This document shows, piece by piece, positions 6,672-11,510 of a stretch of 42,392 nt of DNA. The stretch's first letter is position 1. Each line of letters opens with the position of its first letter. Source of the stretch: a virus (taxonomy: Duplodnaviria > Heunggongvirae > Uroviricota > Caudoviricetes); IMG/VR virus record IMGVR_UViG_2778261252_000011; one strand, given 5' to 3'. Below the pieces are notes generated by a model. It was not told the DNA's origin, ran no database searches, and saw only the letters and a list, made by a program, of their open reading frames with translations. Both the position numbers and the translations under genes were made by a program.

Positions 6672-7160
6672 ATGTTGGATGTATTTACTCCATTGTTGAA
6701 ACTTTTTGCTAACGAGCCACTCGAAAGACTTATGTATACGATTATCATTTTTGGTCTCACTCTCTGGCTGATACCGAAAGAGTTTACTGCCGCATTCAAT
6801 GCTTATACTGAAATACCTTGGCTCTTTCAGATTATCGTTTTTGCCTTTTCTTTCGTGGTCGCCATTTCCTTCTCAAGATTGCGAGCACATATTCAAAAGC
6901 ATTATTCATTACTACCAGAGCAACGAGTATTGCTTCGTTTATCTGAGAAAGAAATCGCTGTATTTAAAGATTTCCTTAAAACAGGAAATCTTATTATCAC
7001 TTCTCCTTGCCGTAACCCGGTTATGAAAAAATTAGAACGGAAGGGCATCATTCAACATCAGAGTGATAGCGCAAACTGTTCTTATTATCTCGTCACCGAA
7101 AAATACTCCCATTTTATGAAGTTATTCTGGAACAGCAGGAGTAGACGTTTTAATCGTTAG
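6672..7160 (+). CDS. sieB: SieB superinfection-exclusion protein (162 aa, membrane)
   Basis: Translation MLDVFTPLLKLFANEPLERLMYTIIIFGLTLWLIPKEF...; internal Met of the 203-aa ORF; hydrophobic N-terminal segments. Confidence 0.85.
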   Translation: MLDVFTPLLKLFANEPLERLMYTIIIFGLTLWLIPKEFTAAFNAYTEIPWLFQIIVFAFSFVVAISFSRLRAHIQKHYSLLPEQRVLLRLSEKEIAVFKDFLKTGNLIITSPCRNPVMKKLERKGIIQHQSDSANCSYYLVTEKYSHFMKLFWNSRSRRFNR

Positions 7161-7312
7161 CTTACTGTGTGCTTCTCCAACCATCGGCGCGCACCAGTTT
7201 CGGTTTTAAATGTTTTGCTTTTGGTATACGTCATGGCAGTGAACGTTCCATCCTGGTTGGGGAACACGCCGCACACCAGGGATTCGTTGTTGCCGAGGTC
7301 GATTTTTTGCAT
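7157..7312 (-). CDS. ydaF: YdaF-like small protein (51 aa)
   Basis: Hand translation MQKIDLGNNESLVCGVFPNQDGTFTAMTYTKSKTFKTETGARRWLEKHTVS; 4-nt overlap with the sieB end; the name is assigned by position and size only. Confidence 0.4.
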   Translation of the reverse strand: MQKIDLGNNESLVCGVFPNQDGTFTAMTYTKSKTFKTETGARRWLEKHTVS

Positions 7313-7322
7313 TTTGCGAATC

Positions 7323-7457
7323 TCACATCTTGTTGCTACGTATAGCGACTTCTGCCTGCCAGAGATCCCAGTCGTTGCTGCGTAAAGCCTGCACAGCCTT
7401 GTTGTAAGTGATACCGCAACAATCCATCAAATACTGAACTACTTCGTAATGCACCAT
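7323..7457 (-). CDS. ydaG: YdaG-like small protein (44 aa)
   Basis: Hand translation MVHYEVVQYLMDCCGITYNKAVQALR...IRSNKM with stop at 7323-7325. Confidence 0.5.
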   Translation of the reverse strand: MVHYEVVQYLMDCCGITYNKAVQALRSNDWDLWQAEVAIRSNKM

Positions 7458-7765
7458 CTTATCTCTCCCCTTAACGCCGGGTGGCGGAACTAACTGCTGC
7501 ACTGCAAAATTTGAATCCCGCCGTCATGTTCATACGCCTCGGGCTGGCTACTTAACCCCTTACCACTGCCTGGTAACTCGAAGTATTGCCCGGCGTTCTG
7601 TGGGGCGGGGTGGGTGGTATGCTGGAACTATAGGTAATGCCTAATTGATTGTCAATAGGCTATGCCTAATGTTTTGAGCGTAACCTAATAGGTGATGGCG
7701 ACAGCAGAAAGTGATGGGGGGGTTAAATAACGGAATCCAGGAGTTTTCCGTCAGACCATATAAGT

Positions 7766-8242
7766 TTAAGTTCCAGTTTTTGTGATGTTCTGGCTTTTCC
7801 GTTCAGATTCTAGAGCTTTCAGATACTTACCCACTTTCATTTCCATCGCTGCTATATAGGCGCGAACATCGTGGTCAACCCAATCTGGTTCTGTAGCATT
7901 TCCAGATAACAGGAAAGCTACAATCGCTCTTATTTCATCAGAGGCTGCTTGATAAAGGTTGTTTATATCTAAAAGTTCACTTTTTGTATCTGAATTGGTG
8001 GGGGTTGGTATGGGGTATTCGTTAAGCCCCCAATGCTCTGGACCAACAACATCAGAAAAGAAACGCCATAATTCTGGAAGTTTATCTTTACTTATAGAGC
8101 CTTTCTTAATCCAGTCATAAATTGATGGTGGTTGGACTTTGAAGTGGCGTGCGACCTCCGCCTTTGATTTGACGGATCCCGATGCGATTTTTTTGTTAAT
8201 GGCCTGCTCTATCGCTCGGCCTAAGTCTTTACCACTAAGCAT
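7766..8242 (-). CDS. racR: RacR prophage repressor (158 aa, HTH)
   Basis: 158-aa ORF divergent from ydaS; N-terminal helix-turn-helix-like segment; matches Rac RacR. Confidence 0.9.
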   Translation of the reverse strand: MLSGKDLGRAIEQAINKKIASGSVKSKAEVARHFKVQPPSIYDWIKKGSISKDKLPELWRFFSDVVGPEHWGLNEYPIPTPTNSDTKSELLDINNLYQAASDEIRAIVAFLLSGNATEPDWVDHDVRAYIAAMEMKVGKYLKALESERKSQNITKTGT

Positions 8243-8365
8243 TGCTTAATATTCTCCTATGCGCATTACATTAGGCAATCCCTACCCTTACCGCATTAGG
8301 CACAGCCTATTGACAATTGCGTTAGGCGTCGCCTAATATTTCTGTGTGTTTTTGGAGTTCATTCG
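8243..8365. promoter_or_regulatory. racR / ydaS divergent control region with ATTAGGC half-sites and the perfect palindrome TTAGGCGTCGCCTAA (8322-8336)
   Basis: Direct reading: ATTAGGC at 8270-8276 and 8295-8301, the palindrome at 8322-8336, and GCCTATTGACA at 8305-8315. Confidence 0.5.
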
Positions 8366-8662
8366 ATGAAAAAAGAGAACTATTCATTCAAGCAAGCTTG
8401 TGCTGTTGTCGGTGGGCAATCAGCAATGGCTAGGCTTTTAGGTGTATCACCTCCAAGCGTAAATCAATGGATCAAAGGGGTACGTCAATTGCCTGCCGAG
8501 AGATGTCCAGCAATTGAACGTGCAACAAGAGGTGAGGTTCTGTGCGAAGAACTTCGTCCTGATATTGACTGGTCATATTTACGACGTTCGGCATGTTGTT
8601 CGCAGAATATGTCAGTGAAGCAACTAAATGACAGTAACAAATCCTCATTTGATCATACCTGA
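8366..8662 (+). CDS. ydaS: YdaS Cro-like HTH protein (98 aa), toxic when derepressed
   Basis: 98-aa ORF divergent from racR; HTH-like segment QSAMARLLGVSPPSVNQWIKG. Confidence 0.85.
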   Translation: MKKENYSFKQACAVVGGQSAMARLLGVSPPSVNQWIKGVRQLPAERCPAIERATRGEVLCEELRPDIDWSYLRRSACCSQNMSVKQLNDSNKSSFDHT

Positions 8663-8684
8663 AACATCAAGAGGCAAATGATTC

Positions 8685-9107
8685 ATGAAAATCAAGCATG
8701 AGCACATCGAATCAGTGTTGTTTGCCCTAGCAGCCGAAAAAGGGCAGGCATGGGTAGCCAATGCAATTACTGAAGAATATCTGCGCCAGGGGGGCGGCGA
8801 ATTGCCCCTGGTTCCAGGCAAGGACTGGAACAATCAGCAGAATATCTATCACCGTTGGTTGAAAGGTGAAACGAAAACGCAAAGAGAAAAAATTCAGAAG
8901 CTGATCCCAGCAATTCTGGCAATCCTTCCGCGCGAGCTGCGTCACCGACTCTGCATCTTCGATACCCTGGAACGCCGTGCATTACTGGCGGCGCAGGAAG
9001 CGTTAAGTACGGCAATTGATGCGCATGATGATGCAGTCCAAGCCGTTTACCGGAAAGCGCATTTCAGCGGCGGCGGTTCTTCCGACGATTCTGTCGTAGT
9101 GCATTGA
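8685..9107 (+). CDS. ydaT: YdaT (140 aa), CII-like / toxic partner of YdaS
   Basis: 140-aa ORF immediately downstream of ydaS, as in Rac. Confidence 0.8.
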   Translation: MKIKHEHIESVLFALAAEKGQAWVANAITEEYLRQGGGELPLVPGKDWNNQQNIYHRWLKGETKTQREKIQKLIPAILAILPRELRHRLCIFDTLERRALLAAQEALSTAIDAHDDAVQAVYRKAHFSGGGSSDDSVVVH

Positions 9108-9152
9108 TTGAAATTAATCGTACCGAACTGTTTTGTTCGGTATCAGTTAAAT

Positions 9153-9594
9153 GTAACGCTGCGAGCGTTACAAGGTGAAAACAAATGGCTTCAAACTGGA
9201 TAAAGCTCGAAGTTATTACGCCGGATAAGCCGGAAATATTCAGGCTTGCTGAGATTCTGAATATTGATCCAGATGCCGCATTAGGGAAAGTCATTCGCTT
9301 CTGGGCATGGGCGGATCAACAAATGATAGACGGTAACGCAGAGTGTAACGCTCGCGGCGTTACAAAAAGTGCAATAGATCGCATCACTTTTATGGCTGGT
9401 TTTGCTGATGCGTTAATTCAGGTTGGATGGCTGGTCGAAACTAATGGTGTGTTGTCGCTTCCTAACTTTGAGCGCCATAACGGGAAAAGCTCTAAAAAAC
9501 GGGCGGTTACAAACGAGAGAGTAACAAAAATACGAGAACTGAAACGAAAAGGTAACGCTGCCAGCGTTACAAAAACGGATCAAAAAGCGTTACC
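9153..9594. repeat. Iteron-like repeats GTAACGC-N5-GCGTTAC (three 19-bp palindromes plus half-sites), candidate replication origin
   Basis: Palindromes at 9153-9171, 9345-9363 and 9552-9570; half-sites GCGGTTACAAA at 9504-9514 and GCGTTACC at 9587-9594; AT-rich stretch follows. Confidence 0.5.
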
Positions 9595-9973
9595 AGAGGA
9601 AGAGAAAGAGGAAGATATAAATACTTATCTCCCCCTAAATCCCCCTCGCCAAAAACGAGCGTCTAAAAAATTCGAACCGGAGGCTATCGAGCTGCCTGAC
9701 TGGTTGCCGGAAACACTCTGGCATGAGTGGGTTCAGTTCAGGCAGGCATTGCGAAAACCGATTCGAACGGAGCAGGGCGCTAACGGGGCGATACGGGAGC
9801 TGGAAAAATTCCGCCAGCAGGGTTTTTCACCTGAGCAGGTGATTAGACACAGCATTGCCCATGAATACCAGGGCTTGTTCGCGCCGAAAGGCGTTCGGCC
9901 TGAGACGTTGCTTCGACAGGTTAACACCGTCTCGTTTCCGGACAGTGCGATCCCACCAGGCTTCAGGGGGTAA
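9185..9973 (+). CDS. ydaU: YdaU replication initiator-like protein (262 aa; O-like, DUF1376)
   Basis: Position upstream of the DnaC-like gene; the gene contains iteron-like palindromes (separate feature). Confidence 0.75.
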   Translation: MASNWIKLEVITPDKPEIFRLAEILNIDPDAALGKVIRFWAWADQQMIDGNAECNARGVTKSAIDRITFMAGFADALIQVGWLVETNGVLSLPNFERHNGKSSKKRAVTNERVTKIRELKRKGNAASVTKTDQKALPEEEKEEDINTYLPLNPPRQKRASKKFEPEAIELPDWLPETLWHEWVQFRQALRKPIRTEQGANGAIRELEKFRQQGFSPEQVIRHSIAHEYQGLFAPKGVRPETLLRQVNTVSFPDSAIPPGFRG

Positions 9974-9979
9974 CGAAGC

Positions 9980-10726
9980 ATGAAAAATATTGCGACAGGC
10001 GGCGTTCTGGAACGTATCCGCAGACTGGCCCCGCCACATGTAACCGCGCCATTCAGGACGGTGGCGGAGTGGCGCGAGTGGCAACTTGCAGAAGGCCAGA
10101 AACGTTGTGAGGAGATCAACCGTCAGAATCGTCAGTTGCGGGTGGAAAAAATCCTGAATCGCTCCGGCATCCAGCCGTTGCACCGCAAATGCTCGTTTGC
10201 GAATTACCAGGTGCAGAACGACGGCCAGCGATACGCGTTGAGTCAGGCGAAATCCATCGCTGATGAACTGACGACCGGGTGTACAAATTTTGCGTTCAGC
10301 GGAAAACCTGGTACCGGGAAGAACCACTTAGCGGCAGCTATCGGGAATCGCCTGCTGAAAGACGGTCAGACAGTGATTGTGGTTACCGTGGCTGATGTTA
10401 TGAGTGCCCTGCACGCCAGCTATGACGACGGGCAGTCAGGCGAAAAATTTTTGCGGGAACTGTGCGAAGTGGATCTGCTGGTTCTTGATGAAATTGGCAT
10501 TCAGCGCGAGACGAAAAACGAGCAGGTGGTACTGCACCAGATTGTTGATCGCCGGACAGCTTCGATGCGCAGCGTGGGGATGCTGACAAACCTGAACTAT
10601 GAGGCCATGAAAACATTGCTCGGCGAGCGGATTATGGATCGCATGACCATGAACGGCGGGCGATGGGTGAATTTTAACTGGGAGAGCTGGCGTCCAAATG
10701 TCGTCCAGCCAGGAATTGCGAAGTAA
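9980..10726 (+). CDS. ydaV: YdaV DnaC-like helicase loader (248 aa, AAA+ ATPase)
   Basis: Walker [16 protein letters not shown] and Walker B LLVLDEIG; position after the initiator gene. Confidence 0.85.
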
Positions 10727-10748
10727 TTTTTACCGGGAGAAAAATTTA

Positions 10749-11510
10749 ATGGAGACTGTTTTTGACGCACTGAAAGCAATGGGAAAAGCCACATCCATAG
10801 AACTTGCTGCTCGACTTGATATCAGTCGTGAAGAAGTGCTGAACGAACTATGGGAACTGAAAAAGGCTGGTTGTGTTGATAAAAGCGCGTACACCTGGCG
10901 TGTGGCTGATAACAACGTTCAGCAGGAACAGCCAGCGCAGGTAGAACTGCTGGAAGAAACCACCACAGCAACAGTAGCGAAAATCTCAGAGTGCGATTTA
11001 ACCGCGACGATTGAACAACGCGGACCACAAACGGCTGATGAGCTGGCTACATTGTTTGGTACCACATCACGCAAAGTGGCTTCAACGCTGGCAATGGCAA
11101 TCAGCAAAGGTCGTCTGATTCGCGTAAATCAGGGCGGTAAATTTCGTTACTGCATACCGGGCGATAATTTACCAGCAGAGCCGAAAGCAGCATCGGTAGC
11201 GGAAACTGATGGTAAGGCCTTTCCTCAGACCGCAGGTGTTGCGTTACCAGTACAGGAGGCTGCAACACAGGAAGATATTAAAACAGAAACTGTGGCGGAC
11301 ATTGTGCAGTCGCTGCCATCGTTTACTGAAACGCGAGCGGATGACCTGGTTTTACCATCACTGCATATGGCAAACCGCGAACTGCGTCGGGCGAAAAATC
11401 ATGTCCAGAAGTGGGAGTGTGTCTGCGCCGCGCTGCGTGAGTTGAACAAGCACAGGGATATTGTACGACAGATTACTGATTCTTCCCGCCATGTTGCATC
11501 GGAAAAGTGA
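10749..11510 (+). CDS. ydaW: YdaW-like protein, apparently full length (about 253 aa); winged-helix-like N-terminus
   Basis: Start chosen at METVFDALK (ATG 10749), clear of the ydaV stop; an alternative upstream ATG at 10698 overlaps ydaV. Confidence 0.6.

Follow-up and report, generated by a model that had tools for sequence, protein, structure and literature searches.

Does the prophage described here carry its replication origin inside the gene for its own initiator, and if so, is this the Rac origin oriJ? The DNA under study, in the following called the window, is the whole 42,392-bp stretch of the IMG/VR virus record IMGVR_UViG_2778261252_000011, which is, judged by its sequence, a Rac-like prophage. 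In it the palindrome GTAACGC-N5-GCGTTAC occurs three times, once just upstream of and twice within a replication initiator gene annotated as ydaU-like. A first-pass annotation had taken this region for a probable replication origin which mirrors that of lambda and may correspond to oriJ. The palindromes are almost certainly functional cis elements of some kind, and we consider it likely that they belong to an intragenic, lambda-style origin built from initiator-binding sites. The basis of this origin reading is comparative sequence analysis throughout. The equation with oriJ has to be given up.

Palindromes and half-sites in the window

The three palindromes, named sites 0, 1 and 2 in the following, are exact copies, just as the first-pass annotation had reported. 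No further copy was found in the window with up to 2 mismatches allowed, and shuffling gives a mean of 0.07 matches by chance, with three or more in none of 100 shuffles. The additional half-sites that had been mentioned are also present, two of them exact and a further one at 9410 with 1 mismatch. Counting both strands, the 7-mer GCGTTAC is found 13 times in the window versus 4.0 expected, and 8 of these 13 lie inside 9153-9593. The relevant features are:

9153-9171: site 0, GTAACGC-TGCGA-GCGTTAC, non-coding, 14 bp before the initiator ATG
9185-9973, plus strand: initiator gene, annotated ydaU-like, 262 amino acids
9333-9339, plus strand: exact left-type half-site GTAACGC, 12 bp before site 1
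9345-9363: site 1, GTAACGC-TCGCG-GCGTTAC, in codons of the N-terminal domain, encodes C-N-A-R-G-V-T
9552-9570: site 2, GTAACGC-TGCCA-GCGTTAC, in linker codons
9587-9593, plus strand: exact solitary right-type half-site GCGTTAC, abuts the purine tract
9595-9615, plus strand: polypurine tract AGAGGAAGAGAAAGAGGAAGA, 21 nt, the window version of a family-wide CCAGAG(AAGAG)n
9616-9630: A+T-rich segment TATAAATACTTATCT, directly after the purine run
9631-9645, plus strand: CCCCC-TAAAT-CCCCC tracts, whose membership in the origin is uncertain
9980-10726, plus strand: ydaV, DnaC-like helicase loader, the partner of the initiator

Each palindrome consists of two 7-bp half-sites, 12 bp apart from start to start. 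Site 0 is located between the ydaT stop (9107) and the initiator ATG (9185), which are separated by 77 bp of non-coding DNA, whereas sites 1 and 2 and the half-site at 9587 fall within the initiator gene, site 2 in a region predicted to encode a disordered linker. The distances between the full sites are 192 and 207 bp, and only half-sites are closely spaced (11-12 bp).

Selection on the sites in related initiator genes

Relatives of the initiator gene were retrieved with peptide patterns lying outside the sites (PNF[ED]RHNG, MA..WIK and HNG..K.RA) and reduced to a non-redundant set of 61 genes with less than 85% amino-acid identity. The loci belong to Enterobacterales, Pseudomonas, Burkholderiales, Xanthomonadales, Planctomycetota, Verrucomicrobiota (including Akkermansia), Ignavibacteriae and others, and protein identity goes down to about 33%. 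Nearly all relatives carry the 19-bp palindrome at two positions of the gene, at +148 to +161 (site 1) and at +337 to +412 (site 2), with free spacers. Many relatives from Enterobacterales also retain site 0, again with a free spacer, at positions -31 to -44 relative to the ATG.

When third codon positions are compared over the 61 genes, a conservation of at least 0.8 outside Trp and Met columns is reached in the columns of site 1 only. The codon choice within site 1, and the use of the same codon at other conserved columns, is as follows; the p-values are nominal and inflated by the phylogenetic non-independence of the loci, despite the non-redundancy at 85%:

Gly: GGT in 48 of 56, elsewhere 24%, Fisher p 6e-18
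Asn: AAC in 50 of 50, elsewhere 71%, Fisher p 1.5e-6
Ser: AGC in 35 of 35, elsewhere 23% (14 of 61), Fisher p 4e-15
Val: GTT in 50 of 59, elsewhere 31%, Fisher p 4e-14

Depending on the lineage, any of the three reading frames may run through site 2, giving G-N-A-x-S-V-T, V-T-x-x-A-L or S-R-x-x-R-D. Because third bases are frozen at site 1 and site 2 occurs in three frames, protein coding can not explain the conservation of the sites, and the comparison of the relatives shows that they are under strong selection at the DNA level.

The half-sites around the palindromes are ordered as well. Relative to site 2, left-type half-sites are found at -24/-23 and -12/-11 and right-type half-sites at +23/24 and +35, which together form head-to-head arrays with an 11-12-bp step. 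At site 1 a left-type half-site at -12/-11, as in the window, is present in 15 of 49 non-redundant relatives. The distances from site 0 to site 1 are 182, 192, 193 and 202-204 bp, with one outlier of 247 bp, and thus proceed in steps of about 10 bp or roughly one helical turn (Rayleigh R = 0.86, n = 11), and the phasing between sites 1 and 2 is weak. These numbers are a hint, obtained from related sequences, that the spacing of the sites could depend on the face of the helix.

Several E. coli and Shigella genes encode truncated initiators (112-210 amino acids versus 262; L006, L007, L099, L102, L105, L106 and L127), some of them with a 1-nt shift just before site 2. Most keep the palindromes, and L099 has no site 2. 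These copies are likely decaying prophages or assembly errors.

Half-sites vary together with the initiator subfamily

In some lineages the half-site has changed, and there both arms and every copy are altered together. GTCACGC..GCGTGAC is found in L037, L045, L052, L060, L065, L068 and L069, in both palindromes as well as in the solitary half-site (GCGTGAC), and this variant pairs an exchange of Asn to His with a synonymous change of the Val codon from GTT to GTG. CTAACGC..GCGTTAG occurs in L055 and GTTACGC..GCGTAAC in L035. More distant subfamilies use other half-sites, namely GTCCGC/GCGGAC in epsilon15 and phiPSA1 (clusters at about +54 to +106 and +333 to +395), GTAGAC/GTCTAC in the Ralstonia phage Raharianne (clusters at +141 to +183 and +357 to +389) and GTCAC/GTGAC in the Vibrio phage 1.211.A. 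The tract ACCAGAGAAGAGAAGAG directly adjoins the second cluster in epsilon15, phiPSA1 and Raharianne. In total, a layout of two clusters followed by CCAGAG(AAGAG)n is shared by the window (9333-9363, 9552-9593, then 9595-9615), 50 non-redundant relatives, epsilon15, phiPSA1, Raharianne and CP2.

The peptide G-N-A-x-S-V-T is missing in the subfamilies with other half-sites, and therefore it is a passenger of the DNA site. Taken together with the cassette exchange described below, the comparison of these lineages shows that the sites travel with the N-terminal domain (N-domain) of the initiator and co-vary with its subfamily.

We also looked for residues which could specify the choice between the GTAAC and GTCAC classes. 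The outcome was rejected as independent evidence; the sole clean column is encoded by site 1, and nearby differences in the basic helix of the protein are confounded by half-sites embedded in those codons. As a side observation, a gene for a C-5 cytosine methyltransferase lies directly before the initiator gene, with an overlap of a few bases, in epsilon15 (L159) and in the Vibrio phage 1.211.A (L163).

The purine tract and the A+T-rich segment

The first-pass annotation had pointed to an A/T-rich stretch after the last palindrome. This stretch is real, but the term is mildly overstated for a GC content of 0.37, and it is better described as a 21-nt purine run followed by TATAAATACTTATCT. Over 9580-9659 the GC content is 0.37-0.42, over 9460-9660 the AT skew reaches +0.4 to +0.66, and within 8300-10800 no 40-bp duplex is less stable than 9590-9629 (z = 2.1, roughly the top 3% of the window). 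Purine tract and A+T-rich segment together (9595-9630) represent, to judge from these properties, a probable DNA-unwinding element.

The longest stretch of purines in the 80 nt downstream of site 2 was compared over the 50 non-redundant relatives. Its median length is 21 nt, and 78% of the relatives reach at least 15 nt, in comparison to a median of 6 nt and 0.2% in background windows. The tract is kept in subfamilies with different half-sites, and its reading frame differs between lineages. After the A+T-rich part, relatives from several orders have tracts of five to seven C, 3-5 nt apart and often followed by a run of four to six G; examples are CCCCCCTTACCCCCCAAGGGG and the version of K-12 Rac, CCCCCCCTAAATCCCCCCCGGGGG (L001 5633-5657).

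The initiator protein and its partner

PHROGs assigns the window protein to phrog_2509, 'replication initiation protein' (3e-88); a match to the 'O-like' phrog_678 is confined to the linker and C-terminus. No Pfam model was found for the N-domain of the window protein and 22 relatives, and the C-terminal domains (C-domains) of some relatives are DnaT-like. The AlphaFold2 model has a mean predicted local distance difference test score of 67, with 80-95 in the N-domain, and contains helices at 16-25, 29-46, 61-68 and 73-80; these are followed by a beta hairpin (84-91), a long basic helix (103-122) and a linker modelled as disordered. We predict a winged-helix N-domain (about residues 10-100), the basic helix 103-122, a disordered linker (125-175) and a C-domain of the YdaU type. 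The winged-helix N-domain is most likely the part which binds the half-sites on duplex DNA. A phmmer search of 1.84 billion representatives found 6,467 clusters at E <=1e-3 and 4,001 at <=1e-10.

In ten out of ten relatives checked, the gene downstream of the initiator gene encodes a DnaB-like helicase, a DnaC/IstB-like loader or a lambda P-like protein, and the initiator gene therefore occupies the 'O' slot of lambdoid replication modules. In the window this partner is YdaV, which matches NCBIfam PRK12377 (2e-153), DnaC (3e-91) and Pfam IstB_IS21.

Comparison with K-12 Rac and oriJ

A blastn comparison with Rac of K-12 MG1655 reveals homology over 7001-9105 (99.6%) and again over 9600-11198 (94.7%), and nothing in between:

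9106-9599, plus strand: swapped specificity cassette with site 0, the N-terminal 138 codons of the initiator gene and every half-site

This segment was replaced as a unit, whereas ydaS and ydaT on one side (99.6%) and the C-domain with ydaV on the other (94.7%) are unchanged. The exchange of an N-domain together with its sites is known from the O genes of lambdoid phages. Among 5426 complete E. coli genomes, the window-type cassette is present in 687 and the K-12 type in 881, and the phage records vB_EcoS-666R9, 673R7 and 613R10 have a cassette 100% identical to that of the window. Since K-12 homology resumes at 9600, the A+T-rich segment is common to both cassette types.

The N-terminal domain of K-12 YdaU is DUF1376, which comes with its own repeats. 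An HHalign comparison of the initiator family with K-12 YdaU aligned the C-domain only, so that a kinship of the N-domain with DUF1376 could not be shown, and the window initiator is, by sequence, a homolog of YdaU in its C-terminal half only. The proposed origin in and upstream of ydaU is partly supported. Cis elements under selection, tied to an initiator gene in the 'O' slot and followed after the last site by an easily melted, strand-asymmetric tract as in the lambda origin, were indeed found; the gene around them is ydaU-like only in its second half.

The suggestion that the element is the Rac origin oriJ is contradicted by the comparison. Because 9106-9599 is a swapped cassette without a counterpart in K-12, the window element is not the oriJ of K-12, and the GTAACGC palindrome is absent from K-12 Rac. 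Both origins would share the prophage family, the operon position (after ydaT and within ydaU), the C-domain, ydaV and the A+T-rich/C-tract part from 9600 on, but K-12 Rac differs in having a non-homologous DUF1376 cassette with repeats of the TGTTCAAACA type. A sequence-level map of oriJ was not found in the searchable literature.

The K-12 ydaU repeats lie at L001 5472-5578 (NC_000913.3, about 1421471-1421577), just before the shared A+T-rich/C-tract segment. Copies resembling A(A/G)CAGATGTTCAA start at L001 5472, 5505, 5538 and 5550 (spacing 33, 33 and 12), and an inverted copy, TGTTTGAACAT, is found at L001 5568-5578. Their statistics are weak (9 matches versus 3.8 expected in 10 kb, five of the nine clustered). 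On sequence grounds these repeats are nevertheless a better candidate for oriJ than the window element.

A possible mechanism and the points against it

The proposed origin would consist of sites 0, 1 and 2, the extra half-site next to site 2, and the purine tract with the A+T-rich segment (9595-9630). The initiator would be expressed from a pR-type operon (racR on one side, ydaS-ydaT-ydaU-ydaV on the other) and would then fill the site clusters via its winged-helix N-domain, probably as dimers. The clusters are about 200 bp apart and may be bridged through looping by the initiator. The adjacent purine/A+T tract would then melt, and the C-terminal domain could recruit the DnaC-like YdaV together with the host DnaB. 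We infer binding by the N-domain, melting at 9595-9630, looping between the clusters and origin firing.

Several points weigh against an origin at this place. The full palindromes are about 190-230 bp apart, unlike the contiguous iterons of lambda, and the A+T-richness is modest (GC 0.37). The distant members L039, L059, L067, L070, L072 and L076 have no recognisable sites. The phasing statistics come from related sequences, in which distances are often multiples of 3. Structural matches of the initiator are weak (Z <=5.5), and the column separating the GTAAC and GTCAC classes is itself encoded by site 1 and so says nothing independent about whether the N-domain reads the site. An origin of this type was not found described in the searchable literature, the coverage of which did not extend to subscription papers. 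In general, the data fit initiator-binding sites better than they prove an origin, and autoregulation could account for sites 0 and 1.

Alternative explanations for the sites

The last point leads to the alternative which survives best, although we regard it as unlikely: the sites could be operators of the initiator or of another regulator which serve the expression of ydaU-ydaV only, by autorepression or as a roadblock, comparable to the inverted repeats that iteron plasmids have at their rep promoters, with the origin located elsewhere. Site 0 lies immediately upstream of the Shine-Dalgarno sequence and the ATG, full palindromes suit dimeric repressors, and the sites are far apart and not clustered as in lambda. 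However, site 0 is missing in most relatives from outside the enterobacteria, while hardly any relative lacks site 2, its half-site or the purine tract, and the conserved purine/A+T tract and the half-site arrays in the linker would be left unexplained. Furthermore, the module showed no second cluster of repeats resembling an origin, and the roles of operator and origin are not mutually exclusive.

Less probable still is that a protein other than the initiator N-domain recognises the sites, for instance a host factor, the CII-like YdaT or the Cro-like YdaS. Proteins of the YdaT type do bind DNA. Yet ydaS, ydaT and racR are 99.6% identical in K-12 Rac, which is without the sites, the upstream neighbours are completely different among the relatives, and the half-site sequence tracks the initiator subfamily, for which a universal host factor offers no explanation.

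We give somewhat less credit again to the idea that the palindromes work by folding into hairpins, either in mRNA or in single-stranded DNA (in mRNA stability, translation control, priming or primosome assembly) and not as binding sites on duplex DNA. A 7-bp stem with a free 5-nt loop would be stable, the changes in the arms are compensatory, and the C-terminal domains of some relatives are DnaT-like binders of single-stranded DNA. But the arms are nearly invariant across phyla and do not covary freely, all copies within one genome change alike, and solitary half-sites and direct 11-12-bp arrays, which have no pairing partner, are conserved and change in concert with the palindromes; an Rfam scan of 8900-9900 gave no match. 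Finally, that the repeats are chance or a by-product of a repeated peptide N-A-x-S-V-T, as the common frame and similar peptides of sites 1 and 2 in the window could suggest, hardly deserves consideration in view of the 0.07 copies expected by chance, the non-coding site 0, the frozen codon choice, the three frames of site 2 and the lack of the peptide motif in subfamilies with other half-sites.

Relation to known origins

With initiator-binding sites forming an intragenic origin as the preferred reading, lambda is the obvious system for comparison, and the resemblance noted in the first-pass annotation is partly borne out. Like the window, lambda has 18-19-bp initiator sites with internal dyad symmetry inside the initiator gene near the linker (7-N5-7 in three copies in the window), followed in the linker codons by a purine-rich, easily melted, strand-asymmetric tract, which is A-rich in lambda, and the next gene encodes a helicase loader. 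In both systems N-domain and sites are exchanged as a specificity cassette, as known from lambdoid hybrids for O, and the C-domain is matched to the helicase-loading partner. The resemblance ends at the iterons and the protein family. Instead of the four contiguous iterons of lambda, the window has two or three clusters at intervals of about 200 bp, of which one precedes the gene, and a series of at least four iterons about 20-24 bp apart was not found in it. Its 7-bp half-sites in head-to-head arrays with an 11-12-bp step are unlike lambda, and so is the conserved (AAGAG)n purine repeat on the unwinding side, which contrasts with the plain A-rich tract of lambda. No relation in sequence could be detected between the initiator and Phage_rep_O (no Pfam hit), and the initiator is not a member of the lambda O family.

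Iteron plasmids (pPS10 RepA, F RepE, R6K pi) combine a winged-helix Rep protein with repeated sites by an unwinding element and with inverted repeats near the rep start, which allow possible autoregulation. In phage SPP1, oriL lies inside gene 38 and is thus an origin within an initiator gene. The window element resembles the former in its predicted winged-helix initiator, in the repeats beside a probable unwinding element and in an inverted repeat near the start of the initiator gene, and the latter in its proposed intragenic position.

Neighbouring genes and related records

The genes around the initiator gene and its partner are:

7766-8242, minus strand: racR
8366-8662: ydaS, Cro-like product
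8685-9107: ydaT, CII-like product
10698-11510: DUF1627 gene, ydaW-like, 270 amino acids

The DUF1627 gene starts 29 bp before the ydaV stop and its product has weak N-terminal matches to helix-turn-helix-like domains; K-12 ydaW is a shorter version of it. In the divergent region between racR and ydaS, upstream of ydaS, there is a near-consensus promoter TTGACA-18-TAATAT at 8310-8339, which presumably is of the pR type and transcribes through the origin. Near the sites themselves a scan for promoters and terminators found nothing informative, with the palindromes scoring as weak minus-strand 'terminators'. Between the ydaT stop and site 0, at 9121-9142, lies a perfect 8-bp stem with a 6-nt loop (TACCGAAC-TGTTTT-GTTCGGTA). 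It is not followed by a run of T on the plus strand, and no copy of it was seen in phage Rac 442/2 (L005), whose cassette is 94% identical.

A prophage of E. coli VE-V10-F is 100% identical to the window over the 2.5 kb compared (8300-10800), and over its first 25 kb the window runs almost colinear with phage genomes in the databases, for example that of vB_EcoS-666R9 (88% coverage, 98.1% identity). A search among plasmids for the module as a plasmid replicon gave two hits only, NC_015459 and the 52-kb non-mobilizable record CP088505.1. NC_015459 is a 41-kb circular phage genome deposited as a plasmid. That the module is the sole recognisable replication module in it speaks for the origin reading, as does the colinearity of the window prophage with phage genomes.

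Implications for the initiator family

Beyond this single prophage, there is about an even chance that the window element belongs to a very large and so far undescribed class of phage origins, comprising about 6,500 protein clusters at 50% identity without a Pfam model, from Proteobacteria, Planctomycetota, Verrucomicrobiota and other phyla. The arrangement of binding sites and purine-only tract would then be repeated in thousands of lineages of phages and prophages. In this class the origin would be written in the coding sequence of the initiator, as two groups of 6-7-bp half-sites, which are specific to the subfamily and face each other head to head in steps of 11-12 bp, and a nearly invariant (AAGAG)n purine mirror repeat for melting or single-strand loading. 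If this is true, a constraint on the DNA dictates the peptide motifs G-N-A-x-S-V-T and A-L-P-E-E-K-R-R-E-E of the protein, and a single base change in site 1 alters the site and an initiator residue (Asn to His) at once. A specialist would be surprised that the 19-bp site and the (AAGAG)n tract are conserved across phyla through three reading frames. The sites are also a clear example of how an element in the DNA can constrain the protein encoded across it.

For the Rac prophages, the analysis corrects the equation of the window element with the oriJ of K-12 and points to a separate oriJ candidate there. For the family as a whole, which includes epsilon15-like, Rac-like, Xanthomonas, Ralstonia and Akkermansia phages and whose members are mostly annotated as 'hypothetical protein', 'YdaU' or 'primosomal protein I', it would provide an origin signature that can be read from the sequence of a widespread initiator. 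The natural pairs of initiators and half-sites (GTAACGC, GTCACGC, GTCCGC, GTAGACG and others) could then be used to study how origin specificity evolves.

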